DNA of 64,000 nt from Thermococcus sp. JdFR-02 (GCA_002009975.1 MTLP01000042.1:224001-288000), one strand, 5' to 3'. Numbered from the stretch's first letter, positions 37,095 to 60,953 are shown. Program-made: numbers and translations. The notes: a model not told the origin generated them from the letters alone.

Positions 37095-37280
37095 CTATAC
37101 CTTAAACACCTTAGCCTTCGCAACGTCCTTCAAAACTGGAACATAGGAAATTCCCTAGTTTTATTCCTTGTCGTTTGTATCGTAAATGTTAAGCTCAATG
37201 CCTTTCTTTCGGAGTTTTTAATGCCTAATCTCCTCCCCACCCTTCAGAGCAAGGAGGAGGTCAGAGTTTTTGATACCTCA
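37095..37280 (-). pseudogene. decayed copy of the 3' end of the ChlI/D chelatase gene
   Basis: Reads (EVSKT)[15 protein letters not shown]...GISYVPVLKDVAKAKVFKV* versus intact [20 protein letters not shown]...[19 protein letters not shown]. Confidence 0.85.
37215..37264 (+). mobile_element. 50-bp non-autonomous IS remnant (IS607/IS200-IS605-like right end)
   Basis: Hairpin CTCCTCC...GGAGGAG ending GGAGGAGGTCAG; AG at both junctions; removing it restores the remnant's reading frame. Confidence 0.6.
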
Positions 37281-37360: not shown

Positions 37361-38653
37361 ATGGACGTGAATGAGCTCATAACGCTGATAAAAGAGGGTG
37401 AGAATGAGCGGATAGAGTTCAAAGCTAAGGCTACAAAAGACATTGCCAAAGAGATATGTGCCTTGGCTAACGCCAACGGCGGCTACATACTGGTTGGAGT
37501 TAACAACGAAGGAAAAATTGTTGGCTGCAATCCTAAAACAGTCCTTGAGGTTATCTCATCCTCAATTCAGGCAATAACTCCTCCAGTAAAAATTGAAACC
37601 AATACGGTTGTAATTGGAGATAAGAAGGTTCTTGTTGTAGAAGTTCCCAAATCGAAGACGCTCTGCTCAATCGGTGGCGTGGCATACATAAGGATAGGCT
37701 CTGGCATAAGGCCTCTCTCAATTCAGGAAATTCTCATGCTTTCCTCAGAGCTCGGTGTTCTAACGTGGGATGAGTTCCCAGCTGTGGAATTAGAAGAAAT
37801 AGAGGATGAATACGTTAAGTGGTTCTTCTCGGCTATGGAAAAAGCCAGAGGACGAAAAATAGACCGAAAAGATTGGCTCATATATTTGAGAAGTGCAAAG
37901 GCAATTAAAGGAAATAAGCTTACAAATGCGGGGGTTCTATTCTTTACAGATGCTCAAGAGTTCATATCTCACAGCAGATGCAGGATTGTAAAGATTGTAA
38001 ACGATGAACCAGTCTGGAGCAGGGAGTTCATTGGACCGGTATGGAAAATCATAGATGAAGTTTTTGCCGAGCTCATGAGCCAGTTTAAAACTTTAGAAGT
38101 CATTTTGGGAGCCAAGAGAGTCAAACTTCCAGAGTATCCACCAAGGGCAGTGAGAGAGGCGTTAATAAACGCATTTGCCCACAGGAATTATGCCATTCCG
38201 TCCGACATAAGGGTGTTCATATATTCCGACAAGCTTGTGATTCGGAACCCAGGTGGTTTAATGCCTGGCGTTGATTTGAGCGACCCGGAGCACGTGCCGA
38301 GAAATCCCAATCTATGCCAGCTGTTTTATGATTCTGGCTACATAGAGAAGTACGGCTATGGAATAAGGATGATAAGGGAAGAGTGCAAAAGGCATGGGCT
38401 TGTTAGTGTAGAGTTTAAAGTCTCGCCAAACAGGTTTGAGGTTGTGTTCAAGAAGCGCGCCGAGGAGCTTTTGGATGATGTTGATAAAAAAATACTCGAA
38501 CTTCTAATGACTCCCAAAAGAAGTGGAGAAATAGCTGAAGTGATTGGTCTTTCAAAGCCCGCTGTACTGGAGAGGCTGAAGAAGCTTGAGAGTCTAGGGC
38601 TTATCAGAAAAGTTGGAAGAGGAGCGCATGTAAAGTACATCACCAAAGCTTAA
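37361..38653 (+). CDS. Schlafen/AlbA_2 + HATPase_c_4-like + HTH protein
   Basis: GENERIEFK, ICALAN.NGG.ILVGV, REALINAFAHRNY, RNP, EKYGYGI, C-terminal wHTH. Confidence 0.85.
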   Translation: MDVNELITLIKEGENERIEFKAKATKDIAKEICALANANGGYILVGVNNEGKIVGCNPKTVLEVISSSIQAITPPVKIETNTVVIGDKKVLVVEVPKSKTLCSIGGVAYIRIGSGIRPLSIQEILMLSSELGVLTWDEFPAVELEEIEDEYVKWFFSAMEKARGRKIDRKDWLIYLRSAKAIKGNKLTNAGVLFFTDAQEFISHSRCRIVKIVNDEPVWSREFIGPVWKIIDEVFAELMSQFKTLEVILGAKRVKLPEYPPRAVREALINAFAHRNYAIPSDIRVFIYSDKLVIRNPGGLMPGVDLSDPEHVPRNPNLCQLFYDSGYIEKYGYGIRMIREECKRHGLVSVEFKVSPNRFEVVFKKRAEELLDDVDKKILELLMTPKRSGEIAEVIGLSKPAVLERLKKLESLGLIRKVGRGAHVKYITKA

Positions 38654-38670
38654 GCAGAACAATTCAAGTT

Positions 38671-40593
38671 TCACGCCCTGTAGACTTTAGCGTTTGCAAC
38701 CTTCTTTAAAATGGGAATATACGACATACCCGGGTTTATTCCCTTGCCATTTGTATCATAAATGTTAAGCTCAATGCCTTTCCTTCTCAATGCTTTTGCA
38801 AGCTCAATGATTTCATCTTTAATTCTCTTGCCAAAGAGAGGAACGTTTGCTTTTCCGTCGGTTATTAGAAATGCCCTAACTTTGATGGACTTATCTTTCA
38901 TTCTCTCTCTGTTGGCTAAAAGTAAAAGATTGTATAAAGCAGAGCTGAGAGGAGTCCTTCCTCCAGTTGGAACACTTTCTATTTTTTCAAACACTTCCCA
39001 GTAGTTCTTAGTTGGCGAAACAAAAACCTCAGCCTCTTTACCCTTTGCAACTATCAAAGCCATTTTTGACTTCTTGATGTAGCCGTTCTCAACTAGCTTT
39101 TCCGCTATTCCCTTTGCAATGCTTATTCTTCTCTTCACCGCCATACTTCCGCTTGAGTCTAAGAGCAAAACCCAGAGCGTAGGAGCCTTTGCCTTCCTAA
39201 CCCTAACGCGGACATCCTTTAGCTCAAGCTTTATCGGAGGCTTTTTTCCATTCAACACTGCCCAAATAGTCGAGTTGTAAAAATCAACATCCCTTATTTC
39301 ATCTTTTGGGGGTAGGTAGGAGACAGGAATCCCCTTTGGAAAGTTTACCACAGTAATGCTAACGTCCCTTGAAGAGCGGTAGCCTGTAAAGTCGTTGCTC
39401 CCAAAGTTTTTGCTCTCTATCCTTGGGATTGTAGCTTCGCTTGAGCGAAAATTGTGCCCTAAATTTCCGATTCCTTGACTTTGAGACTTCTGGTTTCTCC
39501 TTTCACTTTTTTCTTCCTTTCTGTGCTCATGCTTATGGTCGTGCTTGTGATCATGATTGTGCTCCTTATCATCTTTAGGCTTTGGCGGCTTCATCTGGGG
39601 CGGCTTTTGGAAGGGCTTGTCCCTCAAGCGGTGCGGTAAAGCTAACTCCATAGCTTTTTCCAAATCCTCAAGAGAAACCCTCCTTCTTCCGTTTAAAGCG
39701 GCTATTGCTTTGGCAGTTTTTATTGTAGTGATTTCAGCTCTGTTGGTCTTTATACCTAAATTAATCACAGCCTCAGCTAAAAGCTTTAGCAAATCATCAC
39801 TTATTTCAACTTTAGGCAAAAGCTCCTTTGCTTTAACAATCTTTTCTGTAAGCTTTTTCTCTTCGCTCTCAAACTTCTTGTAGAAGCTTATTGGGTCTTC
39901 ATGAAATTCCTCCACTCTTTTAACTATCTCTATCCTATCCTCTGGGTTCATTGGTGCTGAAACTTCAACACACAGGCCAAATCTATCGAGGATTTGGGGT
40001 CTTAAGTCGCCTTCCTCTGGATTCATGCTCCCGACTAAGATAAAGCGGGCTGGATGTCTAAACGAGATTCCTTCCCTTTCTATCGTGTTCCATCCCATTG
40101 CTGCAACATCTAAGAGCGAATCGGCTATGTAGTCATCTAAGAGGTTGACTTCATCGATGTAAAGCACTCCCCTATTAGCCTCCGCTAATATTCCCGGTTG
40201 CAGAGCTTTTTTGCCCTCTTTTAAAAAGCGCTCTACATCAATTGTTCCAACCAATCTATCTATTGTAACGCTTAAGGGCAAATCAACAACCCTCATTCTT
40301 CTTTTGGCAATTGGTAAGCTCTCGCCTCTTCCATATCTCTCATAGCAGCTGTCGCACATCTCTAAGGGGTTCATTGGATTGCAGTTGAAGGGACAATCTG
40401 CCACAACTTCAATTTCGGGCAAAACGTTAGCCAAAGCCCTAACTAGGGTTGATTTCCCCGTTCCTTTGTCTCCTTTCAATAAAACTCCACCTATTAGCGG
40501 ATTAACCGCTACACAGAGCAAGGCTAATTTAGCCTTTTCCTGCCCAACTATAGCAGAAAATGGGAAGATTAAGCGTTTTTCACGAGCTTCCAT
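38671..40593 (-). CDS. class I chelatase AAA+/vWA subunit (ChlI/ChlD-type)
   Basis: [37 protein letters not shown]; His-rich linker; DSSGSM, GGRTPL, TDG. Confidence 0.9.
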
Positions 40594-43500
40594 ATTTTAT
40601 CCACCTCCTCAATATTTTCACTCCAGTGCTCATCATCTTGGGCAGTGTAGATTTCAATCGTTCCACCTTGAACTTCCCCTTCACCAAGATGTTCCTCCAA
40701 AAGCCCCTCAATTTCAGAGTAAGCTTCCATAAGCCTTTCAATGAGCTCATCGCTCGTCTCCCACAAGCCGCGCTCATAAGCTTCAATCAAACGCCTTGCA
40801 ATTTCCTCAATAGCGTAGGGATTGTGCTCCTCAAACCATCTCCTCATCCCTTCATCAAGAACATACTTTTGCGCTATTTCATCAAAAATCCAGTCTTCAA
40901 CGAGCTTTGTTGTTGCTTCCCAGCCATAGAGATGAAGAATCTTCTTTGAGAACTCGCTCGCCCCTCTATAGCCGTGCTTCTTCATTTCTTCAATCCACCT
41001 GTCGTTGAGAAGCTTTGTCCTTGTTATTCTTTCAATCTCGACTTTAATATCAACAATTTTAGTATCGCTTATGTCTCTTGTATCGACCTGGATTATATCT
41101 ACATCCTTGCCAGTTAGAGCATCTACCGCTGTTTTAAATCCACCGTGATAGGCAAAATAACAGCAGCAGTTCGTTAAGTCATGCTCATCGCTTATGTGGT
41201 TTCTATTGATTACGTCAACGCTTTTGAGGTTCAAAACCAATGATTCATGAGCTTCAATGCCAAAGGCATCTTTTCCATAAGCGTAGCCGCTCCACTGAAT
41301 CCAAACCTTTGCTAAATCCTCCTCCTTTTGCCAACCCGATGACTCAACAGCTAAGTTTACACCAGCTCCATAAGCTCCTGGAGGAGCAGAGAAAACTCTA
41401 AACCTCGCAAACCTTTGGGCTTCTTCAAAACTTTTTCCTAGCTCAATTAGCTTTTTAATATGCTTAATGTAGTGCTTTCTAACGTAATTCATTTCTAACG
41501 GCTCATCCAAGATAACAACCTTTTCTATTGCTTCGTCGATGAGATATATGTAATTTGGCAAAGTATCTCTAACAATTCCGCTTATCCTAACCAGAACGTC
41601 AATCCTTGGCCTTCCGAGCTTTTCTAAGGGAATTACTTCAAGTTCAGAAACTACATCTCCTTTCCAGATAGGCTTAACTCCAAGCAAATAAAGAATTTGG
41701 GCTATTTGTTCGCCATCGGCTTTGTAACCGTCTATACTCCAAAGAACCTGCCCAATGCTTTCGGGATACTTCCCATGCTTCTTATTGTACTCTTCCAAGA
41801 GCTTTTCAGCAGTTTCAACCCCAATTTGCCAAGCTGCTTTGGTTGGCAAAGTTCTTGGATCAACTGCATAGAAGTTTCTTCCCGTTGGCAAAATCTCGAA
41901 CTTCCCTCTCGTTATGGCTCCCGAAGGGCCTGGCTTTACATATTTTCCTCCCACACCTTCTAAAAAGCCATTATATTCCCTTTCGCACTCGACAACTTTT
42001 TGAGCAACTTCAAGGGCTTTTCTAAACGGTTCCTCAAGCTTTTCTTTCTCCTTAACTTTGAATCCAAACTTTTCAATTTCTTCCTCAATGACATCAAAGC
42101 CTTCTCCATTAAGCAAACGCTCTAAGCTTTTAACTGCTATCTTGTGGAAAATCTCCAACAATTCTCTGTTCGTAAATCCATTTGTAGTCTCTAAGGGGTT
42201 CTTTCTTATCTTGTCGTAGTCCGCGCCTATTGCCTCAGCTATCGCCCTTCTAATCGAAGGGGAAGCGTAGGAATCGTAAGCCATTGCCGTGGCAATGTAT
42301 TCCGTCAATCTTTCGGGTTCTTTTGGTGGATACCCAAAGATATGAAGACCGAGATTAATTTGAGAACCTCTCATCAACTCAGCGTAGCGGTGGATTTCCT
42401 CTATCGTTTGCTCTTCATTTTCAGGGTTCGCTATTCTTATCTTGTTTCCTTCAGCTTCCTCCAAAATCTGCTCGTAAATCTTCTTTCTTCTTGCATCATC
42501 TCCCAGGCTCTTTGCCTTTGCATACTGATTCAAGAGCGAATCCAAATCATCCAAAACTTCAGCTATTGCCATTGGTGGATAAATGTGGTCTATTAGCGTT
42601 GCATAACTTCTTCTCTTGGCAATAACGCCCTCCATTGGATTTGAAACTACATAAACGTATAAGTGGGGAACGTCATCTAAGCTTGCCTCGGGAACACATG
42701 AAGGAGAAAGCCCAACGCTTTTCCCCGGCCTAAATTCTAAATAACCGTGAGTTCCAAAGTGAATCACAACATTGGCATTAAACTTCCTCGTTATCCACCT
42801 ATAGACAGCCCACCACTGGTGAGGAGGAGTTATAGTCGGATCATGGAGGATTCTACAAACTTTTCCATCACACCTCGCCCCAGCACAGCCGAACTTTGGC
42901 TGCGGAGTAATGAAAACGTTTCCAAACCTTATTCCAGGAACAACGAACTTTCCATCATAAACCATTCCAACCAATGTTTTGTCCACTTTTCCTGTCAAAA
43001 CGTCCTCTGGTCTTCCCCAATCTTTGACTATTTTTTCTTTTAAGTCCTCGGGAAGCTCATTGAACCACTCCAAATAATCCTCCAAGTTTACGAAGTCAAT
43101 TGCCCCACCATTTTTGACGATTTCTTCCACACTTGTCCATCTAAACTCACTTATCGCTTTTTTCTCCAAAATCATTCTTATTAGCTCTTCTCCATTCTTT
43201 GGAAGCTCTTCCCCAACATAGTAGCCTTCTTCTTTTAGCCTGTGCAGAAGTCTAACTATGCTCTCTGGAACATCCAATCCCATTCCCACTGCAATGCCGG
43301 CTTCGAGTCCCTTACAAGGCGGATTTATCAAAACTATTGCTATTTTAACGTCTTTCTTTGGCTTTTTCCTTAGCTCAATCCACTTCTTCACTCTTTTGAC
43401 GAGGTATTTTATGTGTTCTTCGTATGGTTCGCCCTTTTTGTAGCCCTCAATGTTTTTAGTTCCAGCTATAAATATCGGCTCAATTGCACCCGCGACTTCC

Positions 43501-44315
43501 GGAATTATCACCCCATAAACCTGCGTCATGTAATCAACGCCTTCTTTTTCCTTCCACTCTTTGAGGCTTTGATAATAAGAGCGAATTGGAGCAAATACTG
43601 GGACGTTTAGCTTTTCCAAATTATTTAAATCAACGGTGCCAAAGGAGATTAAACTTACCAGTGCCTCAATAATTGGTTTCCCATCTTTTATGAAGAACTC
43701 CTCAACTGCTTCACTCTTTTCTTTTCCGAGTCCTGTTGTTGAGTCTTTCCCATAGGCAAACACTGGAATAACCCCTAATCCTTCACTTTCAAGTGCTTTG
43801 ATGAGCTCCTCAATCGGGCTGAATTCTCTGTAAAGCCAAGCACTCCTCCAGAATAGAACTCCAACAATTGGTCTCTTATTATAAACCTCCAAATATTCAT
43901 CTAAACTCTCAAAAACCCCAAAATTTGGGTGGTAAATCCCATGCATTGGAACTTCTTTTGGCTCTTCATATTCTCTCTTTTCACCTGCCAAGTTTGCTAA
44001 AAACTTAGCTAAGTTCCTTAGATTCTCCTCACCACCGAGGACGTAGTAGGATTTAGCTTTAACTAAAATTTCTTGCGGAACGTTGTTTAAGCTGTCCATT
44101 GAAACAATCTTTGCTCTGCTCTTCCTTAGCGTCTCTACAACAACATCCGGAAGTTCGTGGGCATAAATGAAAATTACTTCTGCCCTTTCAACTTTTTCAA
44201 GCTCTTTCTCACAGTTCTGTTCTGTTAAAACAACTCCATCGATTTTTTCCTCTTTCAATATTTTCTCAAGCAAAGGCAAAGGTCTTGCACCGTAACCCAA
44301 TATGAAGCAGATCAT
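40569..44315 (-). CDS. CobN/ChlH-like chelatase large subunit
   Basis: [58 protein letters not shown]. Confidence 0.9.
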
Positions 44316-45262
44316 AAAACCACCCCCATCACAAGTATAAGGCACAGTATGATAGCACTCCGTGTTGCCATTGAGATGAGCATAATCTTCGTTCCATCTT
44401 TAGCTCCATATAGACCAACATAATAGGGAATCAGCACTCTTAGGAAAGTGATATTCGCGAGAACTGATCCAAGAAGGAGAGACCTTATTAGAGCTTTTTC
44501 ACTTATTAATCCAGCTTTTAAGAGGTTTGCACCGAGAGTATAAGCCGCTATACTGCTTGCCATTGCACTTAATGCCACACTTATTTCTTCCGGCGAAAGA
44601 GGAAGGAAAGCTGCAAAATCTTTTACGAGAGAGGTTAAATACTCAAAAAACCCTGCTGCTATGAGCAAGGCGGTTATGTAAGTTGCCAAAACCATGGTTT
44701 TTAAAATCGGCATCGAGTGCTTCTTAGTTTTTGCTAAAACCTTTCTTAAAACTTTTTTAAATGGCTCTTGGGAATTTTTGGTGTGCTTTTGAACATTTTT
44801 TATTTGTTTTGGACTCTTAATTAAGAGTTTCCCAGCGAATGCAAAAACAGTTGTTTGAATAAATCCAATAAGAACCAAGATCCCAAAATAAAGCAAGCCA
44901 AGTGTCCCAAGCGTTGCCAGAAGAACTGGGATTAACGAGTTCCAGTGCCTAACCATTGCAGGAAATGCGTTCATAAGAGAGGCAATGTAGAGTTCTTTCT
45001 TGCCTATTTTTCCCTCTTTGTAAAAATCTATAAGCATGGCATTTCCTGCCCTTGTATTTAAAAACGCAGTTGCAAAGGCTAGAGCACACTCCTCTGGAAG
45101 ATTTGAAAGCTTAACAAAAGGTTTCCCTATTGGAGAGAACTTGTTAATAACTCCTTTCTCAATTAAAAGCTCAGCTATGAATATGCCAACCAATAACCCG
45201 GGAACAGAGCGTTTTAAAAAGCTAAATGCTATTTCCGTTGAGGTTATTATCAAGCTCAGCAT
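44312..45262 (-). CDS. nucleoside-recognition (Gate) domain membrane protein
   Basis: About 8 TM; two repeats LPEE..AF..F..G.AML / LSPEE..ALSA..G.NLL. Confidence 0.7.
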   Translation of the reverse strand: MLSLIITSTEIAFSFLKRSVPGLLVGIFIAELLIEKGVINKFSPIGKPFVKLSNLPEECALAFATAFLNTRAGNAMLIDFYKEGKIGKKELYIASLMNAFPAMVRHWNSLIPVLLATLGTLGLLYFGILVLIGFIQTTVFAFAGKLLIKSPKQIKNVQKHTKNSQEPFKKVLRKVLAKTKKHSMPILKTMVLATYITALLIAAGFFEYLTSLVKDFAAFLPLSPEEISVALSAMASSIAAYTLGANLLKAGLISEKALIRSLLLGSVLANITFLRVLIPYYVGLYGAKDGTKIMLISMATRSAIILCLILVMGVVL

Positions 45263-46032
45263 TAAACTACCTCCGTTTTTGGCATGATAACTCTAAATCC
45301 ATTGAACTCCAAGATGTGAATTGGAACACCGTAAACCTCTTCAAGTATCTCCTCTCTCAAAATCTCGCTCGACTCTCCAACGGCTCTGATCCTTCCTTCC
45401 TTAACCAAAGCTATCTTATCTGAATAAATTGAAGCCAAATTTGGATCATGGAGTGTTAGAATTGCTGTAATTCTCTCTTCTCTTGCGAGTTTTTTAATAA
45501 TCCCAAGGATTTTTACCTGATTTTTGAAATCCAAATGAGCGGTAGGCTCGTCAAGAAGAAGGACTTTTGGCTCTTGGACTAATGCTCTCGCTATTAAAAT
45601 CAACTGTAATTGACCTCCGCTCAGCTGGGTATATGGTCTGTCTTTAAAGCGCTCCATTCCCAAAAGCCTGAGCTTTTCGAGAGCTTTCTCATAATGCTCA
45701 TCTTTTGGACTCTCAAAAACGCTGAGCTGAGATGCCAAGCCCATAACGACGACATCTAAAACTGTGTACGGGAAAGGAGGATAATGGGATTGAGGAACGT
45801 AACCAGCTAACTTAGCCCTTTCCTTTAATGATAAAGAGTGAAAATCTCTGCCATCTATGAAGACGCACTTTTTCTTTGGCTTTAACAACCCATAGACATT
45901 CTTCAAAATCGTGGTTTTTCCACTGCCGTTTGGACCCAATAAAGTTAAAATCTCGCCTTCTTTAACCTCAAAGCAAACATTTTCAACGCTGAAATCGCCA
46001 TAACTGAATGATAAGCCTTTAACTTTAAGCAT
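45262..46032 (-). CDS. iron-chelate/cobalamin-type ABC ATPase
   Basis: GPNGSGKT, YVPQ, LSGGQ, LLLDEPT, LHD. Confidence 0.92.
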   Translation of the reverse strand: MLKVKGLSFSYGDFSVENVCFEVKEGEILTLLGPNGSGKTTILKNVYGLLKPKKKCVFIDGRDFHSLSLKERAKLAGYVPQSHYPPFPYTVLDVVVMGLASQLSVFESPKDEHYEKALEKLRLLGMERFKDRPYTQLSGGQLQLILIARALVQEPKVLLLDEPTAHLDFKNQVKILGIIKKLAREERITAILTLHDPNLASIYSDKIALVKEGRIRAVGESSEILREEILEEVYGVPIHILEFNGFRVIMPKTEVV

Positions 46033-47071
46033 GCCAACCACCGCCCGTCTTTCTCAATAGATAGGCAAAGAAGGGTATTCCAAGTAATGTGGTTAATATC
46101 CCGATTGGAATCTCATAAGTGGCTATTGATCTCGCTAAGGTGTCTGCCAAAACCATAAAAGAAGCTCCGAGGGTTATTGAGAGGGGGATTAGCTTCTTAT
46201 GGTCGGGTCCAAAAGCCATTCTAACCATGTGAGGGATCATTAAGCCAACCCATCCAATTATTCCACAAAAAGCGACAGAAGCGGCTGTTATAAGTGAAAC
46301 GATTAAGATAAAGGCAAACTTCAACTTTTCAGTCTCAACTCCAACGAGCTTGGCCTCTTCTCCAAAGGATAAAACATTCAGCTGCCAGCGCATTAGAGAT
46401 ATTATAATGCATCCAGCAAAAATAATTGGAAACGCTACTTTAAGGGAATGCCAATCAGCATTGGCAAAGCTCCCCATAAGCCAGTAAACCACACTCGCCA
46501 ATTTTTCGTGCTCCATTAAAAACTTCAATAGTGACGTTAATGCGGAAAAGAACGCATTAACTATAACACCAGCCAAAATTAGGGATACTGGGGTTATTCT
46601 ACCACCTATTTTAGCAAGAGACGTTGTCAAAAACACTGCAAGCAGAGCAAAAGCAAATGCTAAAGGAGTAACGCCCAAACCCAACGAGAGTCCTATGGCT
46701 AATGCAGCTCCAAAAGCTGCCCCAGAGGAAATCCCTAAAATATAGCTATTGACAAGGGGATTTCTAAATATTGCCTGCAGAACTGCTCCAGAGACTGCTA
46801 AAGCTGAGCCAACAATCATAGCTAAAAGAACCCGGGGAAGTCTTATTTTAAAGAGAACCGTTTGATAAACGCTTGGATATGGAATTTGAACATCAAAATA
46901 AAGCTTTCCAAGGGTTATTTTAGCCAAAACACCTGAAATAAGTTGGAGAGATTTTAAGAATGCCATATTTATTATGTCAGCCATTGGCATGTGATACGCA
47001 CCGATAAACAGACTTATGAAGAATGCAAAGATTGGAGAGACTAAAAGAAAAAGAAAGAGAAATCTTCTCAT
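46025..47071 (-). CDS. FecCD/BtuC family permease
   Basis: IRLPR, RNPL...GISSGA, GIIGWVGL..PH, EIPIG. Confidence 0.92.
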   Translation of the reverse strand: MRRFLFLFLLVSPIFAFFISLFIGAYHMPMADIINMAFLKSLQLISGVLAKITLGKLYFDVQIPYPSVYQTVLFKIRLPRVLLAMIVGSALAVSGAVLQAIFRNPLVNSYILGISSGAAFGAALAIGLSLGLGVTPLAFAFALLAVFLTTSLAKIGGRITPVSLILAGVIVNAFFSALTSLLKFLMEHEKLASVVYWLMGSFANADWHSLKVAFPIIFAGCIIISLMRWQLNVLSFGEEAKLVGVETEKLKFAFILIVSLITAASVAFCGIIGWVGLMIPHMVRMAFGPDHKKLIPLSITLGASFMVLADTLARSIATYEIPIGILTTLLGIPFFAYLLRKTGGGWHA

Positions 47072-47075
47072 CCTT

Positions 47076-49181
47076 TCACCCCTTTATCTTGTAGAACTTC
47101 TGAAGTATCTCATTGTAGATTGGCTCCCAGCCGGGATAGTATTCTGGATAAATTGCATGACCAAAGGCGTAAATTCCCGTTATGAACCTTGGTCCATAAA
47201 GAGCAGTTGCATCTTTCTTATATGAGCTCACTAATATCCCAACGACGTTTCCTTCTTTAACTGCTTTAATCTCCTGCCAACTTGGATCGCTCTTGATTTT
47301 CTCAACTGCTTCATTAAGTCTCTCTGCTTCCCAGTCAACAACAATTAGAATGTCGGTTTTATCTCCAAAGTATGCTATGAGCTTTTCTAAGTCAAGCTTT
47401 AGGTAAGGTCCTCCCTCGTTGACATCAAAGGCTAAGTTGTGTCCTCCCACAAGCTCAGCGGTTTCAGCATAAGCACTTCCTCTTGTAGAGACAGTTATTG
47501 TCCCCGTTGCATATTTACCAGTAATTGATGAGCCGTAAACTATAAGCACGTTTTTCTTCTCCTCTTCTGGTATTTTGCTCGCTATTTCAAGGGCTTGATT
47601 ATAATAGCGCTCCAAGAAGCTTGCCAGTTCTTCGGCTTCCCTCTCTTTATCAAAGACCTTTCCAAGCACTCTTATTATCCTAATGTTCTCATATGGCATT
47701 TCTGTTCCTGTCTTGTTTGAATCAGGAATTCCAAAGGCTAAAACTGGAATGCTAAGCTCTTCTGCTCTCTCAAATAGTTCCTTTTCCTTTGGCTCAAATG
47801 AGCCCCACCACAAGCCCATTACGATCAAATCTGGCTCTAAGCCTGCAACAGTTTCCCAATTAATACCTTTATAAACAGAGCCAATTTGCGGCTTTTGCTT
47901 AATGCTTTCTGGTAAGAATTGGTCCTTTGGTGTGTACTTGTCAATTCCCACTATTTTGTCATCTAAGCCTAAGCAATGCAAAACTTCAGCCCAATAACTG
48001 CTTGTAATGATGACTCTTTCGGGAACTTTTTCAAAGGTCACCTTTCTTCCAGCAGAGTCCATTACTTCCACTTTTACCTCATAGCTAAGCCCGTAGAACT
48101 TCTCAAATAACTCCTTTGCAATTGGCTTCCACTCTGGGTAATACTCTGGATAAATTAGTCCACCCATTTGGTAGACTCCCACGACTATCCTTGGTCCCCA
48201 GTCTAAGAATCCTTTAGAACCAGCCAAAATTCCGTAAACGTGACCTTCCTTAACTGCTTTAATCTCTCTCCATTTTGGGTCGCTTTTTATATTATCCACA
48301 GCTTTTTCAAGCTTCTCTTGATTAAAGGAGGTCACTATTATTACATCAGCTTTGTCTCCCCAATATGCAATAATTTTTTCCAAATCAAGCTTTGGCCACT
48401 GAGTATCGAACTCTTTGTCAAAAGCCAAGTTGTGAGCACCAACGAGCTCAACAATGCTTGCCCAGGCACTTCCCTTTGCATAAACTGTGATTGGGCCGTT
48501 TATGTCTTTGGGAGCATTTATGATAATGACGTTCTTCCTCTCATCGTCTGGGATTTGGCTGGCTAGTTTGTTCACTTCTTCCAACTTGCTCTTCATCCAA
48601 TTTGAAAGCTCTTCAGCTTTCTCTTCCTTTCCAAAAACTTTCCCCAAAAGCTCAACAACTTTAACGTTATCCTTCACACTTTTGGCGGTTAATGCTATAA
48701 CTGGAATGCCGATTTCTTCTGCTTTCTCAATCGTCTCCTTGTCCTTGTATTTGCCGCCATACCAGTCAGCGATTATTAAATCTGGCTCTAAACTTGCAAC
48801 ACTTTCCCAATTAAGACCTTTAAATGAACTCCCTACTGCTGGCTTTTGCTTAACTTCCTCGGGGATATATGGATTATTTGGAACGTACTTTCCAATGCCA
48901 ACAATTTTATCATCTAAACCAAGTATGTGGAGAATCTCAGTCCAATAACCTGTTAAAACAATTATTCGTTCGGGAACTTTCTCTAAAGTCACTTCTCTTC
49001 CTGCAAAGTCTGTGATTACCATTTTTTCTTGAGTTTCTGTTTGAATATGGGATGCACTTGTTGTCTTTTCTTGGATGGTTGAAGTGGATGTTGTTTCCAT
49101 TGGAGTCTTTTGGACGCATGCACTGCTAAATGCTAGGATGGATATTACAAGCAGCGCCAACAACACCTTGCTACTTTTCAT
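47076..49181 (-). CDS. lipoprotein with two tandem BtuF/FepB-type substrate-binding domains
   Basis: Lipobox SSAC, T-rich linker; TDFAGR..PERI..LEPDL..GPR repeated as MDSAGR..PERV..LEPDL..GPR. Confidence 0.9.
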   Translation of the reverse strand: MKSSKVLLALLVISILAFSSACVQKTPMETTSTSTIQEKTTSASHIQTETQEKMVITDFAGREVTLEKVPERIIVLTGYWTEILHILGLDDKIVGIGKYVPNNPYIPEEVKQKPAVGSSFKGLNWESVASLEPDLIIADWYGGKYKDKETIEKAEEIGIPVIALTAKSVKDNVKVVELLGKVFGKEEKAEELSNWMKSKLEEVNKLASQIPDDERKNVIIINAPKDINGPITVYAKGSAWASIVELVGAHNLAFDKEFDTQWPKLDLEKIIAYWGDKADVIIVTSFNQEKLEKAVDNIKSDPKWREIKAVKEGHVYGILAGSKGFLDWGPRIVVGVYQMGGLIYPEYYPEWKPIAKELFEKFYGLSYEVKVEVMDSAGRKVTFEKVPERVIITSSYWAEVLHCLGLDDKIVGIDKYTPKDQFLPESIKQKPQIGSVYKGINWETVAGLEPDLIVMGLWWGSFEPKEKELFERAEELSIPVLAFGIPDSNKTGTEMPYENIRIIRVLGKVFDKEREAEELASFLERYYNQALEIASKIPEEEKKNVLIVYGSSITGKYATGTITVSTRGSAYAETAELVGGHNLAFDVNEGGPYLKLDLEKLIAYFGDKTDILIVVDWEAERLNEAVEKIKSDPSWQEIKAVKEGNVVGILVSSYKKDATALYGPRFITGIYAFGHAIYPEYYPGWEPIYNEILQKFYKIKG

Positions 49182-49198
49182 GAATTTCACCACCAATC

Positions 49199-49226
49199 GT
49201 GCTACTAATTTTTATTTTAGTAATAT
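49199..49226 (-). promoter_or_regulatory. 28-bp imperfect palindrome, NikR-operator-like
   Basis: GTGCTAC-TAATTTTTATTTTA-GTAATAT (core TACTAA-N8-TTAGTA) between the TATA (~49250-49265) and the RBS. Confidence 0.55.
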
Positions 49227-49356
49227 CACAAAAAGCTCAAAGCGTGGATTTTTAACGCTTTTTAAAACAGACAGTTGGCAACCAAAGGTTGATCAAGGAT
49301 ACTAACTGCTAATTAAGCCGAAATTAAAACTTAAAAGAAGAAAAGAGCTCAAAACT

Positions 49357-55092: not shown

Positions 55093-55839
55093 TTATTCAA
55101 GAGCTGCCAGGAGGATAGGCTTTCCATCAATAGTGGAGATTTTTGCCTTAACTCCATAAACCCTTTCCAGTATATCTTCTTTTAACTCAAACACTTCCCC
55201 ACTCCATTCAATTGAGCCGTTATGTAAAAGCATTAGCTTATCTGAATACTGCAAAGCTAAATTTAGGTCATGCATAACCGCTACGATGATCTTTTCATCT
55301 TTAAGCCTTGTTAAAAGCTCCATAATTTGCAAGGCATGGTTTACATCTAGGTGAGAAGTAGGCTCGTCTAAAAGTATTATTTCACTTCCTTGGGCTAATG
55401 CCCTAGCTATTAAAACAAGCTGATATTCTCCGCCACTTAGGTTTGTTATAAACTCCCTCCTTCTCTCCCACATCCCTACGAGCTTTAAGGCTTTTTTGAC
55501 ATCTCCACCAGTTGCATAGGTTCCAAGTTCCACAAACTCTTCAATTGTAAAGGCAAATTCTGGAAGGGAATTTTGAGGAACATATGTAATGTATTTAGCT
55601 CTCTCCTTTGCTGGAAGCTTTGTTAGATCAAGTCCGTTATATCTCACGTAGCCTTTTCCTTTTAAAATTCCCACCATGCATTTTAGAAGAGTTGATTTAC
55701 CAGCTCCATTTGGACCAATAATAGCTAAAAGCTCTCTTTTTTGAGCGAAAAAGCTAACATTTTTTAAAACCTCTCTCTCGCCATAGGAAAACCTAAGGTT
55801 AACTTCAAGTTGTTTTTCCTGCTTAGGCATAAAGTTCAC
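55093..55839 (-). CDS. BtuD/FecE-type ABC ATPase
   Basis: GPNGAGKS, LSGGE, DEPTSHLD, MHDLN. Confidence 0.9.
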   Translation of the reverse strand: MNFMPKQEKQLEVNLRFSYGEREVLKNVSFFAQKRELLAIIGPNGAGKSTLLKCMVGILKGKGYVRYNGLDLTKLPAKERAKYITYVPQNSLPEFAFTIEEFVELGTYATGGDVKKALKLVGMWERRREFITNLSGGEYQLVLIARALAQGSEIILLDEPTSHLDVNHALQIMELLTRLKDEKIIVAVMHDLNLALQYSDKLMLLHNGSIEWSGEVFELKEDILERVYGVKAKISTIDGKPILLAALE

Positions 55840-56848
55840 CCCTCTTTCTCTTCATTAAAAGATAAATGAAGAATGGAGCCCCAAATAAAGCTGTTATAAT
55901 TCCAACTGGGATTTCTGAAGGCTTTAACAAGATTCTTGCTAATAAATCTGCAAAGACCATTAAAGAACCTCCAAATAAAGCCGATGCAGGCAAAAGCTTC
56001 CTGTGATTAGGTCCAAAAATTAAACGCATTGCATGGGGACTTATAAGACCAACAAAGCCAATAATTCCAGAAGTTGAGACTGCAAAAGCCGTTAAAAGTG
56101 AAACAACGAAAATTATTGCCTTTCTGTAAAAGCTTAAATCCAGACCTAAAGCTATTGCTTCCTCACCGAAGAGAAGTAAGTTAAGCTCTCTCCACTTATA
56201 CATTAAAAATGAAAATCCTAAAAGGGATGAGAATAGCACGAGCTTAGCATCGCTCCAAGTCGCACCATTGAATGTTCCCATTAACCAAAAGATAGCATTA
56301 TGAATTCTCTCTTTTCCGACATACAAAAGATAAGACGTCAAAGCATGGGCAAAAAAGCCAAAAGCAATTCCCGCTAAAAGCAATGTGTCAACTGGAATAT
56401 GTCCATCAACTTTTGATATGTTGTAAACTAGAAAAACTGAAAGCAGAGCAAAGAGAAGGGCAAAAATACTCATATACCTTGGAAAGAACAGAGCGGCTAT
56501 TGAAGCTCCAACTGCAGCTCCTCCAGAGATTCCCAAAATATAAGGATCACCCAAGGGGTTTTTAAATAAGGCTTGAGTTGCAACACCCGCAGAGGCTAAG
56601 CTCAAACCAACTAAATAAGCAAGGATTACTCTTGGTAGTCTAATCTCCCAGATTATTGTAAAGTACGTTGTGTCTAGTTCTTTTAAAGGTTCAACTCCAA
56701 AAACAAAAAGCAATTTAGAGATCTCCATTTTTACTCCATAAATAATGCTTTTCAGAATTAAAGAAAAGGATATACTAACTGAACCAAAGGCTATCCCTAA
56801 GAACATCAGCAACACTGAGGCGATTATAAGGATTATCACTTTTTTCAT
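55823..56848 (-). CDS. BtuC/FecCD permease
   Basis: IRLPR, KNPL.DPY.LG.S.GA, GIIGFVGL..PH. Confidence 0.9.
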   Translation of the reverse strand: MKKVIILIIASVLLMFLGIAFGSVSISFSLILKSIIYGVKMEISKLLFVFGVEPLKELDTTYFTIIWEIRLPRVILAYLVGLSLASAGVATQALFKNPLGDPYILGISGGAAVGASIAALFFPRYMSIFALLFALLSVFLVYNISKVDGHIPVDTLLLAGIAFGFFAHALTSYLLYVGKERIHNAIFWLMGTFNGATWSDAKLVLFSSLLGFSFLMYKWRELNLLLFGEEAIALGLDLSFYRKAIIFVVSLLTAFAVSTSGIIGFVGLISPHAMRLIFGPNHRKLLPASALFGGSLMVFADLLARILLKPSEIPVGIITALFGAPFFIYLLMKRKRGELYA

Positions 56849-56960
56849 AGTATTCCCCTTTGGATTTTTTGTCCAATTAAAAATCGTTATGTTGACTTAA
56901 AAATCTAACCCAAAAGAAACCCTATAAATGATGAGAGAATATAAAGACTTGGTGGGTAAG

Positions 56961-59006
56961 ATGAAAAAAAGATACATAATAACCATTTTAATCATTTTGC
57001 TTACACTTAGCACTACCATTAGTCCCGTAAGTTCCCAAGCTTTTGTTAAAAATCCAAAACCTCCCCTTATAATAGTGGGCAATCCATACCCAAAATACCT
57101 CTCACTATCACCAAACGAGACTTACACAGTTTACCTATATGTAGCCGATGATGTGGAAATTAGGGAGACAAAGCTTTACTACAAGGTCAACGATGGGGAA
57201 TGGAAGTCTATTTACGCAGTTAGAGCAACTATTAATGAAAACGAAGAAATGTATGAGTCAATAGTCAGCAAATTCACAACCAAAGAATTCAAGTTCACAA
57301 CATTTTATGGAAAGGCTACAATTCCCTCTCAAAAACCGGGTTCAAGGGTTTACTTTAAAGTTGTTGCCCAGGATGCTGAAGGGCACATAGTAGAGAGTCA
57401 AATTGGAACTTACATAGTTTCTAACCCTGAAGGAAAAAGAGTAATGGTAGTTGATCCCTCAGTCAAATACAGAGCTTTTTTAGAAAATATGCGTTTTATA
57501 AAAGAGATGATAAATTACACGAAAGAGAAATACTTCTATGACATGAGTGAATACCAGAAAACAGTTGAATTTTTAGAACCTTTTGAAAACTCCAGCCAAA
57601 GTTTTCTAAGAGAACACCATTGGGAGCTTTTAGCTAAAGATTATAATATCATAATCGTTTCCCCAGAAGAAGTCGCGAATGCACTTAAAGAGTTTAAGCC
57701 AGAGGTAATTATCTTGTCAAATCTATGGATAAAGGAGTGGGAGCTTTCAAAGGAGGAACTTAACAGCCTAATTAAATATCTAAGAGACAACAACTGCGGA
57801 CTAATTGTTACCCATGGGACTCTATATGATGGGATTTCCTGGAAAGAAGGGATTAATTATTTAGGATCAACTCTCCACATAGGTGGGATAGAGGCTTATA
57901 ACGATGAAAGCATTGCAACTTTACTTGGATTTGAACTTTTGCCAATATTAGAAGGGGCTAAACTAAAGTACGCTGAAAATAAGCCTCACTTGGCAGAAAT
58001 TCCAACTCTTTTGCCCTTCCTTCCATCAAAAAGCAAGTTAAATATTAGAAATAAGGGAATAATATCAAGCATAGGCTTATTAAGCTTTGAGGGCGAAATT
58101 AATGCGGCTTTTGGATGGCAATATCTGCTCCCAGCAGAAAGCTTGCCCTTTGCAAAGAGCAAAGTTAGGGAACTAAAAAAGAGCGTCAAAGTAAGAGTAA
58201 AGGAGTTCTCAGAACTTCAAGAGAAAGTTTTTGGAGTTTCTTTATATACAAGAAACATTTATGCCCTCGACTTTCCTTTTGTTGATGCAATTTTGAATAT
58301 TCAAATCAAAGACACTCAAGTTGAAATACCTGTAGGTACTGATGTCCTAATCTTAGAGCCTCCTCAAGAGATCATTGAGAGGGTCAGGCTCTTAAAGGCG
58401 ATAAACAGGGATCTAATTGATATAAGTGCCCTTTCAAGCGATTACCTGTTAACCATCATAACCAGAGATGAGAGGCATAGAAAAGATGGAATTAGGAGTG
58501 TATACATTTCCTTTGAGATAGAAGCCGGAGGAAAAGAGAGTTTTGGTGTTTTGAAAGATCTGATAGCATGGGCTTCAGATTTTAAGCAAATCCAATATTT
58601 AGTTCAAGAGCCACAAGTTGTTCTGTTAGCTAACGACATAGATTGGGAAATCAAAGGAAAAGAACTTTTTGAACAGTTTAAGTCCATAGGGGCAAATATT
58701 AAGAGAGTTAAGCCATCAGAATTTGAGATTTACAAAAACTCAAGAGTCGTGGTGATTTTAGGAGGACCAAAGGCTTATGATGGTATCGGAGACTATGTGA
58801 AACAAGCATTAAACGAAGAAGAACAGCTAAAAATAATCAGAGGGGAGGAAGGGATATTTATAAAGAGGGATGTTTGGAATAAGAAACAAGTTGTGATAAT
58901 AATTGCGGGAAGAGATAGGAATCAAACTGGGGCAAAGGTATTGCTTTATCAAAAAGGCATAAATGAAAAGTACATAGACCTTTTGGCAGAGTTCAGTTTA
59001 AAGTGA
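56961..59006 (+). CDS. large secreted protein with C-terminal S-layer-like domain
   Basis: Signal peptide; Ig/FN3-like N-domain; C-terminal LANDIDW..ILGGPKAYDG..AGRDR. Confidence 0.7.
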   Translation: MKKRYIITILIILLTLSTTISPVSSQAFVKNPKPPLIIVGNPYPKYLSLSPNETYTVYLYVADDVEIRETKLYYKVNDGEWKSIYAVRATINENEEMYESIVSKFTTKEFKFTTFYGKATIPSQKPGSRVYFKVVAQDAEGHIVESQIGTYIVSNPEGKRVMVVDPSVKYRAFLENMRFIKEMINYTKEKYFYDMSEYQKTVEFLEPFENSSQSFLREHHWELLAKDYNIIIVSPEEVANALKEFKPEVIILSNLWIKEWELSKEELNSLIKYLRDNNCGLIVTHGTLYDGISWKEGINYLGSTLHIGGIEAYNDESIATLLGFELLPILEGAKLKYAENKPHLAEIPTLLPFLPSKSKLNIRNKGIISSIGLLSFEGEINAAFGWQYLLPAESLPFAKSKVRELKKSVKVRVKEFSELQEKVFGVSLYTRNIYALDFPFVDAILNIQIKDTQVEIPVGTDVLILEPPQEIIERVRLLKAINRDLIDISALSSDYLLTIITRDERHRKDGIRSVYISFEIEAGGKESFGVLKDLIAWASDFKQIQYLVQEPQVVLLANDIDWEIKGKELFEQFKSIGANIKRVKPSEFEIYKNSRVVVILGGPKAYDGIGDYVKQALNEEEQLKIIRGEEGIFIKRDVWNKKQVVIIIAGRDRNQTGAKVLLYQKGINEKYIDLLAEFSLK

Positions 59007-59160: not shown

Positions 59161-59238
59161 GCCCCGGTGGTGTAGCCCGGTCAAACATGCGGGCCTTTCG
59201 AGCCCGCGCCCCGGGTTCAAATCCCGGCCGGGGCACCA
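59161..59238 (+). tRNA. tRNA-Glu(TTC)
   Basis: Acceptor GCCCCGG/CCGGGGC, anticodon arm CGGGC-CTTTCGA-GCCCG, GGTTCAAATCC, encoded CCA; upstream BRE-TATA. Confidence 0.97.
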
Positions 59239-60793: not shown

Positions 60794-60867
60794 GTGTATT
60801 TTTACCTTCTTCAGGTTGATAAGAATTGTGCCTAAAACTTTTTAAAGGACTAAAATACACTCGCTAA

Positions 60868-60928
60868 GGGCGATGGCGTCCGCCCGGGCTTCGAGCCCGA
60901 ACCGCCCGTAAGGGCTGATGACGCCTAT
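60868..60928 (+). ncRNA. fluoride riboswitch (crcB motif)
   Basis: GGGCGATGGCGTCCGCCC...AACCGCCC-GTAA-GGGCTGATGACGCCTA; heads an operon containing crcB. Confidence 0.93.
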
Positions 60929-60953
60929 TCTACAACTCCTTGGAGGCGGTAGA

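Follow-up and report, generated by a model that had tools for sequence, protein, structure and literature searches.

A Thermococcus operon with a double SurR-type promoter motif couples a type II ABC importer to a CobN-family chelatase and points to metal scavenging

The stretch of 64,000 nucleotides from the hyperthermophilic archaeon Thermococcus sp. JdFR-02 analysed here (hereafter the window) carries six co-directional genes on the minus strand, which combine an ABC importer, a Gate-domain membrane protein, a CobN-family chelatase subunit and a fused ChlI/ChlD-type motor. The ensemble points to metal scavenging rather than to vitamin B12 synthesis. As the best explanation we tentatively favour the import of a metal-tetrapyrrole-like chelate followed by ATP-driven removal of the metal, with nickel as the favoured metal; the ligand, the reaction direction and the metal are the elements of this reading that we infer.

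A preliminary description had proposed a six-gene, co-directional unit with abutting or overlapping ends, which the ORF listing and the Pfam matches confirmed. The ORFs abut tightly: downstream of the binding-protein ORF (listed as 47076-49196) the junctions consist of a 4-nt gap and then of overlaps of 17, 1, 34 and 25 nt. With the likely ATG starts of the binding protein (49181, preceded by GGTGGTGA) and of CobN (44315; ORF listed as 40569-44345), the start of CobN is overlapped by the stop of the Gate gene. The sequence upstream of the first gene is conserved and the gene junctions leave no internal intergenic gap within the cluster, making it plausible that one promoter serves all six genes, as had been suggested. 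A degenerate remnant of the 3′ end of a chlID gene lies at 37098..37214 (−), with 67% identity over 39 residues and an internal stop.

The first gene (47076..49181, −) encodes a substrate-binding protein that, as judged from profile matches and hydropathy, is formed by two tandem Peripla_BP_2 domains (two Pfam matches, 210 bits) behind an N-terminal hydrophobic anchor. Among 15 related loci, this protein is double in seven and single in eight. It is followed by a FecCD-family permease of the type II ABC importers (46025..47071, −; 299 bits in Pfam) and by an ABC ATPase of the heme/corrinoid/siderophore importer type (45262..46041, −), assigned by profile matches (ABC_tran, 107 bits). A FecCD permease, a Peripla_BP_2 protein and a cognate ATPase are thereby encoded in one operon, as in the type II importers BtuFCD and those for heme and siderophores, from which the operon differs in its equivalog scores under the cut-offs, its tandem binding protein and its co-transcribed chelatase. 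The best NCBIfam model of the permease was BtuC (NF007081, 267 bits against a cut-off of 461), all equivalog scores of the ATPase stayed under their cut-offs, and none of the importer parts reached the cut-off of a substrate-specific NCBIfam equivalog. None of the solved relatives nearest to the binding protein has a named ligand, the scores of BtuF, CeuE and ShuT are similarly low, and no ligand-specific residue could be assigned from the comparison with solved relatives.

The gene at 40569..44315 (−), with ATG 44315 as its probable start, encodes a CobN/ChlH-family large chelatase subunit of 1248 residues, present in one copy in the window genome. Its match to the Pfam profile CobN-Mg_chel (PF02514) reaches 1203.3 bits against a cut-off of 24.5 and spans profile positions 2-1088 of 1090, which places the protein in the superfamily of class I chelatase large subunits. 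The best NCBIfam matches are CobN models, the equivalog TIGR02257 being missed marginally (818.4 bits against 822.05) and NF004646 scoring 1275.1 bits against a cut-off of 1468; the BchH/ChlH model TIGR02025 likewise stays under its cut-off (813.9 against 829). Comparison to solved relatives gave 513.1 bits for M. tuberculosis CobN (7c6o), 507.8 for ChlH (4zhj) and 414.5 for HmuS (9d26), the most distant of the three. The HFGTHGxLEF block, H529, G531-G534 and E537 are invariant in all 14 aligned sequences, and in an alignment with 4zhj and 6ytj, E537 falls on the position of ChlH where entry 6ytj has a different residue, in keeping with a conserved chelatase core. We take this glutamate to be the equivalent of the catalytic E660. 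New here is an invariant insert of this CobN clade, C487-x4-C492-x4-C497, that is found neither in solved ChlH nor in M. tuberculosis CobN.

The last gene (38671..40593, −) encodes a 640-residue ChlI/ChlD-type subunit in which an AAA+ module, a His-rich linker and a C-terminal vWA domain are fused in one chain, as judged from matches to AAA_lid_2, Mg_chelatase and VWA_2 in Pfam (TIGR02442: 645.4 bits, under the cut-off of 779.45). A Walker motif and the Walker B sequence LYIDEVN can be read from the translation, and no second copy of the protein was found in the window genome. The linker of ChlD is acidic and Pro-rich; the conserved His-rich linker of ChlID described here is new and takes the form HxHxHxH in 15 of 15 Thermococcales proteins. 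A His-rich linker would be expected in a Ni, Co or Zn protein rather than in an iron protein. Two points stand against the favoured reading: a class I chelatase that works with a ChlI/D motor is not known to run backwards, and the sequence holds no feature that would set the direction in which the reaction runs.

Two class I systems offer themselves for comparison. A full-length PF02514 protein and an AAA+/vWA partner are common to the operon and the CobNST/CobN-ChlID cobaltochelatases, whereas scores under the CobN equivalog cut-offs, a genome without ring synthesis, the single fused I/D subunit, the Cys insert and the linkage to an importer set the operon apart. Mg-chelatase (ChlH/BchH with ChlI/ChlD) is as close as CobN and shares the HFGTHGxLEF block and the AAA+/linker/vWA layout; the differences are the His-rich linker, a score under the BchH cut-off and, as far as seen, a missing chlorophyll pathway.

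Of 15 related Thermococcales loci, 13 could be aligned with the window promoter (two were dropped by the anchoring expression), and a block of ~110 nt ahead of the gene for the binding protein is conserved throughout this alignment. An A/T-rich stretch at 49248..49265 (−), TTAAAAAGCGTTAAAAAT, is nearly invariant among the 14 aligned promoters and is a putative BRE/TATA element. Upstream of it, at 49266..49290 (−), lies a double SurR-type motif, AAC-N5-GTT-N3-AAC-N5-GTT, composed of two overlapping copies of GTTn3AACn5GTT. At the same offset the double motif is exact in the window and in eight of the 15 related loci and carries one mismatch in six; its state in one locus, L032, was assessed by eye. 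Downstream of the TATA-like box and ahead of the ribosome-binding site, an inverted repeat, TACTAA-N8-TTAGTA (49203..49222, −), is exact in the window and seven of the 15 related loci. This repeat occurs once in the window genome and in 13 of 97 genomes, in ten of these at the promoter of the chelatase operon.

GTTn3AACn5GTT is the long SurR motif by the definition given in the excerpted text of PMC8595942, where the chelatase operon is not among the named targets. The window genome contains 20 matches to it against 29 expected from composition. Thirteen of the 20 are intergenic, and intergenic matches occur at surR/pdo, the hypE-like gene, hypA, hypF, two MNHE-first operons, hydB/hydG-like genes and the chelatase operon. 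Only one further double site exists in the genome, at the promoter of an MNHE-first (Mbh-like) operon. The double motif sits ~10 nt upstream of the TATA-like box, and at hypA, hypE, hypF and one MNHE-first promoter the motif has the same position relative to such a box. The operon shares with the Thermococcales SurR regulon a motif that is kept in orthologous promoters; its doubling here, in the position known from the hyp and Mbh-like promoters, is a new observation. Judged by its motif, the promoter would be bound by SurR, and the sign of the regulation, activation or repression, would depend on the choice of TATA box. With the TATA-like box given above, SurR apparently activates this promoter in Thermococcales in parallel with the genes for [NiFe]-hydrogenase and Hyp proteins, and it is for this reason that nickel is the favoured metal.

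The support for nickel, already suggested by the preliminary description with F430 as one possible source, is circumstantial throughout: it comes from the SurR motif, the His-rich linker and two observations in other organisms. At L043, whose homologue is 54% identical, NikR and LarB/LarC/LarE flank the cluster, and in M. marburgensis CobN1, which may be of the same clade as the window protein, is up ~300-fold under Ni limitation and down under Fe limitation, according to PMC12350162. Neither NikR (94 of 97 genomes) nor CODH (15 of 30 carriers and 19 of 67 non-carriers, confounded by genus) correlates usefully with the cluster. Cobalt and iron are further possible candidates.

In relatives from other archaea and from anaerobic bacteria, a FecCD importer, CobN and ChlI/D occur together, joined by a Gate protein in some and by an ABC-2 exporter pair in others. 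Within 31 wider loci that have at least 4 kb of flanking sequence on both sides, a FecCD permease or binding protein accompanies CobN in 24 and ChlI/D in 27, and the coupling of chelatase and importer proposed from this one operon therefore holds across many phyla. The same 31 loci contain Gate in six cases, a DrrAB/NodIJ-like ABC-2 pair in 16 and both in none (12, 25 and one among all 80 loci). A second transporter beside CobN fits a succession of import, processing and export.

In the window this position is taken by a Gate-domain integral membrane protein (44312..45262, −), probably a secondary transporter as judged from Pfam, clusters, hydropathy and homologues. Its PF07670 match of 28.7 bits lies just below the cut-off of 29.6; the assignment is upheld because PF07670 is precomputed on 21 of 30 homologues and the Atlas clusters agree. 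The AF2 model (pLDDT 89.3) finds its best fold matches among elevator-type anion transporters, with Z-scores of 6.7-9.6, a weak level for helical proteins. The core of ABC importer, CobN and ChlID was found in 15 of the 16 Thermococcales loci retrieved. Gate, whose role would be in export, is absent from seven and broken in one of 15 clusters; it is dispensable, which speaks against the favoured reading.

A different cargo is conceivable, and we consider it rather unlikely that the operon serves iron acquisition, with imported heme being stripped of its iron in the cytoplasm by an ATP-driven counterpart of HmuS/BtuS. To our knowledge, HmuS is the one proven dechelatase, and its differences from the window protein, given below, weigh against the favoured reading as well. 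The Bacteroidota proteins HmuS and BtuS belong to the same superfamily, are linked to uptake rather than synthesis and serve hosts unable to make the ring, so that the functional side of the analogy drawn earlier stands. It goes no further than that: with 414 bits against 513 and 508, HmuS scores lowest among the solved relatives, and the excerpt of PMC12583661, which together with the listed PMC6460266 provides the precedent of HmuS and BtuS, describes HmuS as a membrane-bound, NADH-dependent enzyme ending in transmembrane helices. The window CobN, by contrast, keeps a ChlI/D ATPase, and a hydropathy scan revealed no terminal hydrophobic segment, the only segment being a marginal one at 276-294. 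Heme as cargo is favoured by IsdE, the second-best NCBIfam match of the binding protein, and by the TonB receptors beside bacterial clusters, for which the heme-receptor subfamily scores best in 11 of 14, all scores being under cut-off. These receptor scores count for the favoured reading as well. In addition, BtuS-annotated proteins of Methanosarcina barkeri are up in Fe(II)/Cys and FeS2 media, as reported in the excerpt of PMC10846266. Against it stand the decrease of M. marburgensis CobN1 under Fe limitation, the His-rich linker and a SurR layout that resembles hydrogenase and Hyp promoters and not any definable iron regulon; neither hmuY nor hmuR was found in the window.

It is improbable, in our judgement, that the protein is a true late cobaltochelatase for salvage, which would insert cobalt into an imported metal-free corrinoid, either hydrogenobyrinic acid a,c-diamide or a form from further along the pathway, and feed CbiP, CbiB and CobS. 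In favour of this explanation, the best NCBIfam models are CobN models, the ABC parts resemble BtuC, BtuD and BtuF as much as anything else, and CbiB, CobS and a 490-residue CobQ/CbiP, which act after the CobN product, are encoded elsewhere in the window genome. This genome is 99.99% complete and has a single TP_methylase match, and tetrapyrrole ring-synthesis genes were not found in it. The earlier statement that corrin ring-synthesis genes are lacking near the operon therefore extends to the whole genome, and the presence of CbiB, CobS and CbiP without ring synthesis makes the organism a corrinoid salvager, as had been assumed. CobN would have no endogenous substrate here, and a function within a ring-synthesis pathway supplying hydrogenobyrinic acid a,c-diamide does not apply.

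The distribution of the cluster argues against a cobaltochelatase as well. CobN occurs patchily and in varied neighbourhoods in 30 of 97 genomes of the family. We read the operon as a self-contained, horizontally mobile module. The presence of CobN corresponds neither with CbiP (over cut-off in 72 of 97) nor with CobS (81 of 97). CbiP, CobS and CbiB went undetected in two genomes, G077 (one contig, 98% complete) and G081 (95%), that keep the chelatase cluster at 94-95% identity; the cluster is therefore not tied to cobamide assembly. Four other carriers (G012, G034, G055 and G066) have no CbiP over cut-off. Together with the single TP_methylase, this independence supports the non-biosynthetic role put forward in the preliminary description. 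Furthermore, no CobN equivalog cut-off is reached, the CobN scores are on a par with those for BchH and the ChlH structures, the Cys insert is not in M. tuberculosis CobN, and methanogens and sulfate reducers, which are among the carriers, would be expected to make cobamides by early cobalt insertion. A cobalamin riboswitch (RF00174) precedes the CobN-ABC operon in none of 20 bacterial loci; the three riboswitches detected among them all lie on adjacent operons, in L079 and L100 only, where cbiMNQO/cbiJ or btuB-like genes under B12 control adjoin the cluster. The riboswitch-linked receptor of L100 scores best as BtuB, under cut-off, and CbiZ and CbiC are found near the clusters of L081 and L086, respectively. 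Given these four loci and the CobN-model matches, a corrinoid link may exist.

Equally doubtful is a non-tetrapyrrole metal chelate (metallophore) as cargo, with the CobN-family protein as a large chelate-binding scaffold only or in another role: siderophores are the classical cargo of FecCD systems, the binding protein offers no ligand-specific residue, and arrays of at least seven binding-protein ORFs next to cobN in two methanogen loci (L072 and L082) suggest many ligands, but the tetrapyrrole-chelatase core with its HFGTHGxLEF block is invariant and all characterised family members act on tetrapyrroles.

Under the favoured reading, import of a metal-tetrapyrrole-like chelate and ATP-driven removal of its metal, a lipid-anchored, two-domain binding protein and the FecCD importer would take up a macrocycle with its metal bound, most probably a metallo-tetrapyrrole set free by other organisms nearby. 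The soluble CobN-family subunit would bind it, and the fused AAA+-vWA motor would spend ATP to drive the metal from the ring. Acceptance of the metal or redox assistance may fall to the His-rich linker, to the clade-specific Cys cluster or to both, and the stripped macrocycle would leave through the Gate protein or, in other lineages, the ABC-2 exporter pair. On a wider and speculative view, to which we give little credence at present, a recyclable tetrapyrrole-type metallophore would cycle widely among anaerobes: FecCD systems, with TonB receptors in Gram-negatives, would import the metal-loaded macrocycle, an ATP-driven CobN-ChlI/D 'reverse chelatase' with its own Cys-ligated centre would strip the metal, and a Gate transporter or ABC-2 exporter would return the empty ring. 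If this were true, the Thermococcales, unable to make the ring themselves, would have obtained the module through transfer and put it under SurR control, pirating nickel for their [NiFe]-hydrogenases.

The six genes at window positions 38671..49265 lie on the minus strand of a 2.36 Mb genome that is 99.99% complete, with a 4-nt gap at the first junction and overlaps at the rest. They encode a binding protein of 706 residues with two Peripla_BP_2 domains and a hydrophobic N-terminal anchor, a FecCD permease and an ABC ATPase (both matched by Pfam/NCBIfam profiles), a 316-residue membrane protein whose match to the Gate domain falls slightly under the cut-off, a CobN/Mg-chelatase family protein (1258 residues as listed ORF) and ChlID, in which an AAA+ module of the ChlI type is fused to a vWA domain (640 residues). 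Translation of the binding protein likely starts at ATG 49181, 3' of GGTGGTGA. For CobN the likely start is ATG 44315, since the resulting 1248 residues match the length of its closest homologues; this also puts the CobN start over the Gate stop. The co-directional, near-abutting six-gene operon proposed in the preliminary description is thus borne out by the ORF listing, the domain matches and the start positions. The observation is genuine and well beyond chance.

The G+C content is 0.42-0.43 across 38-44 kb, which covers the chelatase genes, and 0.36-0.39 in the flanks on either side. This raised G+C (window 38000-44000) would agree with uptake from a relative that is richer in G+C. On the minus strand at 37098-37214, 1.45 kb past the intact chlID, lies a decayed chlID 3' end comprising the last 39 codons (67% identity, one internal stop), and a plus-strand AlbA_2/HATPase_c_4/HTH gene (37361-38653) separates the two. 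The relic suggests that an older copy of the cluster was replaced, or that an insertion occurred at this site. A tblastn search with ChlID over the whole genome matched the gene itself and this 39-residue relic, and a second ChlI/ChlD copy is absent.

Both FecCD permeases of the genome are inside the window. The second (55823-56848, minus strand) is accompanied by its ATPase (55093-55839, minus strand) and has no adjoining binding-protein gene; the sole other binding-protein homologue of the genome is at positions 696-1535 of the same contig (C1). Adjoining the second pair is a divergent ORF of 692 residues (56928-59006, plus strand) without a Pfam match. Further along, a tRNA is found at 59161-59235, and a fluoride riboswitch (RF01734, 54.2 bits; 60860-60934, plus strand) overlaps the start region of the ORF at 60918-61802.

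The genome is unable to make tetrapyrrole rings of any kind, corrin included: one CobN and a single TP_methylase match are all that the whole-genome check for ring synthesis returned, in line with the lack of such genes noted earlier for the window. Elsewhere the genome encodes CbiB, CobS and a CobQ/CbiP of 490 residues, so the organism is a corrinoid salvager, as had been assumed for Thermococcales in general. Because tetrapyrrole synthesis is missing, the substrate of the window CobN must be imported.

CobN is carried by 30 of the 97 Thermococcaceae genomes, or by 27 of 79 when good-quality genomes are counted, and its closest matches come from Palaeococcus and Thermococcus (96-95% identity). 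Named carriers of the gene include Palaeococcus pacificus, Thermococcus paralvinellae, T. piezophilus and Pyrococcus yayanosii, which can be cultivated. We compared 16 fetched Thermococcales loci. Fifteen share the gene order binding protein, permease, ATPase, (Gate), CobN, (second CobN), ChlID, with protein identities of 62-98% for the best-matching domain and variable flanking genes. The sixteenth (L029) holds a divergent CobN paralogue alone with ChlID in two pieces, and ABC genes are absent nearby. Among the 15 loci, Gate is present in seven, broken in one and absent in seven, and the binding protein is double in seven and single in eight. A second CobN paralogue with 33-37% identity is inserted in three. 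Paralogues between CobN and ChlID were seen at L030, L031, L032 and L035, which comprise Thermococcales loci and one Thermoplasmata locus, and several second-CobN copies hold one in-frame stop. As the order is kept while the flanks vary, the module behaves as a mobile unit with importer, CobN and ChlID as its core. It is a conserved, transferable system.

Across the 97 genomes, CobN presence correlated with neither CbiP, CobS nor FecCD copy number, which we count solely against a B12 role. Two further correlations were dropped: NikR occurs in 94 of 97 genomes and is uninformative, and the difference for CODH (15/30 carriers, 19/67 non-carriers) is driven by one genus. In several other Thermococcaceae genomes, a FecCD permease of another type, a CODH-like gene and NikR are found within a few kb (G064:C147, G047:C115, G051:C23, G056:C14, G052:C138, G068:C60, G063:C115 and G019:C1, given as genome and contig), the CODH-like gene being matched as two pieces in one frame. 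Arrangements of this kind hint that a FecCD-type importer of the family can sit in a nickel neighbourhood.

The profile scores of the window CobN fall between families. It reaches 818.4 for TIGR02257 (CobN; cut-off 822.05), 813.9 for TIGR02025 (BchH; cut-off 829) and, with its top profile NF004646, 1275 (cut-off 1468). Against solved structures it scores 513 bits with M. tuberculosis CobN, 496 with a second CobN, 508 with Synechocystis ChlH and 414 with HmuS. Four cysteines (C344, C487, C492 and C497) are invariant in 14 aligned relatives of 42-96% identity; a C-x4-C-x4-C stretch precedes the HFGTHGxLEF core by ~35 residues. ChlH has a shorter, cysteine-free segment at this position and M. tuberculosis CobN has another segment in its place, which makes the stretch a signature of the window-CobN clade. 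An Fe-S centre has reportedly been described in a proteobacterial CobN. The Walker motifs of ChlID are intact as read off the translation, and its linker carries 5-7 histidines per 30 residues in all 15 Thermococcales orthologues examined, with similar tracts in three of the wider loci (L043, L063 and L109).

The structural model of the Gate protein (pLDDT 89.3, from 26 sequences) had Pho90, ArsB, INDY, DiT1, CNT and TRAP-type elevator transporters as its best VIA-align neighbours, with Z scores of 6.7-9.6 over 229-288 residues. Since common helical packing can give such Z scores, we keep the assignment at a probable secondary transporter. Neither a PDB sequence match nor a Foldseek match at E <= 0.001 was obtained; FeoB, which may nonetheless be related, was absent from the VIA-align neighbour list. 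When the binding-protein sequence was searched against solved structures, no ligand class was prominent.

A scan of genome contigs by pattern returned at least 600 stretches, 597 of them encoding relatives, and the best 80 of the 597 were kept. These come from Archaeoglobi, Thermoplasmata, Thermoprotei, Korarchaeia-like archaea, Methanosarcinales and other methanogens, and from Thermodesulfobacteriota, Nitrospirota, Desulfobacterota, Bacillota, Planctomycetota and other bacteria. Thirty-one loci extend at least 4 kb to either side of cobN; of these, 24 have a FecCD permease and/or binding protein and 27 have ChlI/ChlD. An ABC-2 pair (ATPase and ABC2_membrane), which scores like the exporter types DrrA/DrrB/NodIJ, is found in 16 of the 31, a Gate homologue in six and both in none; in the best 80 of 597 the figures are 25, 12 and one. 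Seven of the well-flanked loci lack a FecCD system; five of them have a CbiQ-type ECF transporter and beta-propeller proteins, in most cases together with S-layer-domain proteins. TonB-dependent receptors occur in 20 loci; 14 receptors beside CobN clusters scored best with the heme/hemoglobin (11), siderophore (2) and BtuB (1) subfamilies, all under the cut-off.

Two abutting or overlapping ORFs of ~780-800 and 500 residues encode CobN in many loci of archaea and bacteria (including L037, L038, L039, L041, L042, L050, L053, L054 and L066). In the two examined, L037 and L066, the pieces are in different frames, and the genome behind L066 is that of an isolate; the pattern resembles a natural split more than an assembly error. 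Two Methanothrix/Methanosarcinales loci (L072:5433-14061 and L082:10840-20616) have at least seven consecutive Peripla_BP_2 binding-protein ORFs adjoining cobN, and in L082 a NifH/NifD/NifK-like trio is immediately upstream of Gate and CobN.

Several lines of evidence bear on a role in B12 metabolism. Of the 97 family genomes, 72 have CbiP above the cut-off and 81 have CobS, and neither follows CobN. CbiP, CobS and CbiB were not found in two carriers, G077 (one contig) and G081, whose cluster is 94-95% identical and which still encode proteins with a B12-binding domain; four other genomes (G012, G034, G055 and G066) have CobN and lack CbiP above the cut-off. In such carriers, cobyrinic acid diamide as a product would have no outlet. 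Moreover, none of 20 bacterial loci with the CobN-ABC arrangement has a cobalamin riboswitch 5' of the operon, a result that shows no regulatory tie to B12. The three cobalamin riboswitches in these loci all belong to neighbouring genes: in L079 they control cbiJ-cbiQ-cbiO-cbiM-cbiN and a second ABC system, in L100 a BtuB-like receptor. We read the riboswitch and carrier data as evidence against a dedicated cobalamin role, and the evidence argues against a biosynthetic cobaltochelatase. Cobalt as the metal is still in play, because cobalt genes adjoin the cluster in a few loci.

The region 5' of the binding-protein gene is conserved between the window and related loci, though the sequence further upstream diverges. 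It contains AAC-N5-GTT-N3-AAC-N5-GTT (49266..49290, minus strand), in which the long SurR motif GTTn3AACn5GTT, as defined in PMC8595942, occurs twice with overlap; according to the same source the effect of SurR depends on the position of the site. The double motif is exact in the window and eight of 15 related loci, always at one fixed offset, and has one mismatch in six others (judged by eye for L032). Genome-wide, GTTn3AACn5GTT has 20 hits against 29 expected by composition, 13 of which are intergenic. Apart from the chelatase operon, these lie at the divergent surR/pdo pair, a HypE-like gene, hypA, hypF, the first (MNHE) genes of two Mrp-type membrane complexes, a hydB/hydG-like pair, a MATE gene and an AAA_14 gene, and one has no ORF start within 200 nt; the chelatase promoter and one MNHE promoter each carry two overlapping hits. 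Gene identities were checked by Pfam, and that of the SurR candidate by PF22315, a PF0095-like C-terminal domain.

Two layouts occur. In one, seen at the hyp genes and a single MNHE operon, 8-12 nt separate the end of the motif from a TATA-like box that follows it; in the other, seen at pdo and the second MNHE operon, the motif is downstream of the box. The chelatase operon, where the motif ends 10 nt before TTAAAAAT, has the layout of the former group. An upstream site position reportedly meant activation in the original SurR work. From this position and the matching layout we infer that the operon may be co-activated by SurR with the hydrogen-evolving, nickel-requiring branch, a reading that hinges on the choice of TATA box. 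According to parts of a P. pacificus sulfur transcriptome study, iron and nickel/cobalt transport genes go up with sulfur, one 'iron(III) ABC transporter' goes down, the locus tags PAP_03965-03970 are reported as down with sulfur, and chelatase or cobN has no occurrence in those parts (PMC6981617).

Downstream of the TATA-like box, at 49203-49222, the promoter also holds the inverted repeat TACTAA-N8-TTAGTA, its single occurrence in the genome. The repeat is found in 13 of the 97 genomes, in ten of them at the cluster, and a reversed control pattern likewise occurs in 13. It is essentially private to cluster promoters. As a shared operator it was rejected, since no regulon emerged across the 97 genomes; a hairpin is not supported, because the substitutions in four related loci (L021, L022, L024 and L032) are non-compensatory by eye.

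Nickel context was also met at single loci of the wider set. In the Desulfurococcaceae locus L043 (CobN 54% identical), NikR (L043:4659-5063) adjoins the ABC genes, and LarB-like, LarC (Ni_insertion) and LarE-like genes (L043:18568-21461) follow the chelatase genes 3-7 kb downstream. HypD and a HypE-like gene lie in the neighbourhood at L073, and at L069 an mcr operon is directly adjacent. Such single cases are anecdotal and carry no statistical weight. Taken together, the data fit a module in which a class I chelatase exchanges metal between an import and an export step; direction, ligand and metal are what we infer, and nickel would be the best-supported metal in Thermococcales.

Title and abstract searches for CobN in Thermococcus returned nothing about the operon, nor did a noisy search for SurR with cobaltochelatase, in which 'surr' matches other words. 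HmuS is established as a dechelatase, and the same 2025 structural paper calls the function of CobN/ChlH homologues outside B12 and chlorophyll synthesis unclear (PMC12583661). Earlier, CobN-like chelatases were proposed as possible nickel chelatases (PMC3087415). Other studies note archaeal chlD genes with unclear function (PMC9227772), an increase of two M. barkeri proteins annotated BtuS in some iron/sulfur regimes (PMC10846266) and a large response of a methanogen CobN homologue, M. marburgensis CobN1 (MTBMA_c06860), to nickel limitation (PMC12350162).

CobN/ChlH homologues without a link to the synthesis of B12 or chlorophyll abound in archaea and in anaerobic bacteria. In a Thermococcales genome that lacks tetrapyrrole synthesis the usual ambiguity is removed, and the question becomes directly testable in organisms for which genetic tools exist. 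The experimental tractability of the module is good. Should it prove to remove metal, the enzyme would be the first class I dechelatase driven by ATP, would account for the nickel-limitation response of the methanogen homologue (PMC12350162) and would reveal how vent heterotrophs are supplied with nickel or cobalt in sulfidic water.
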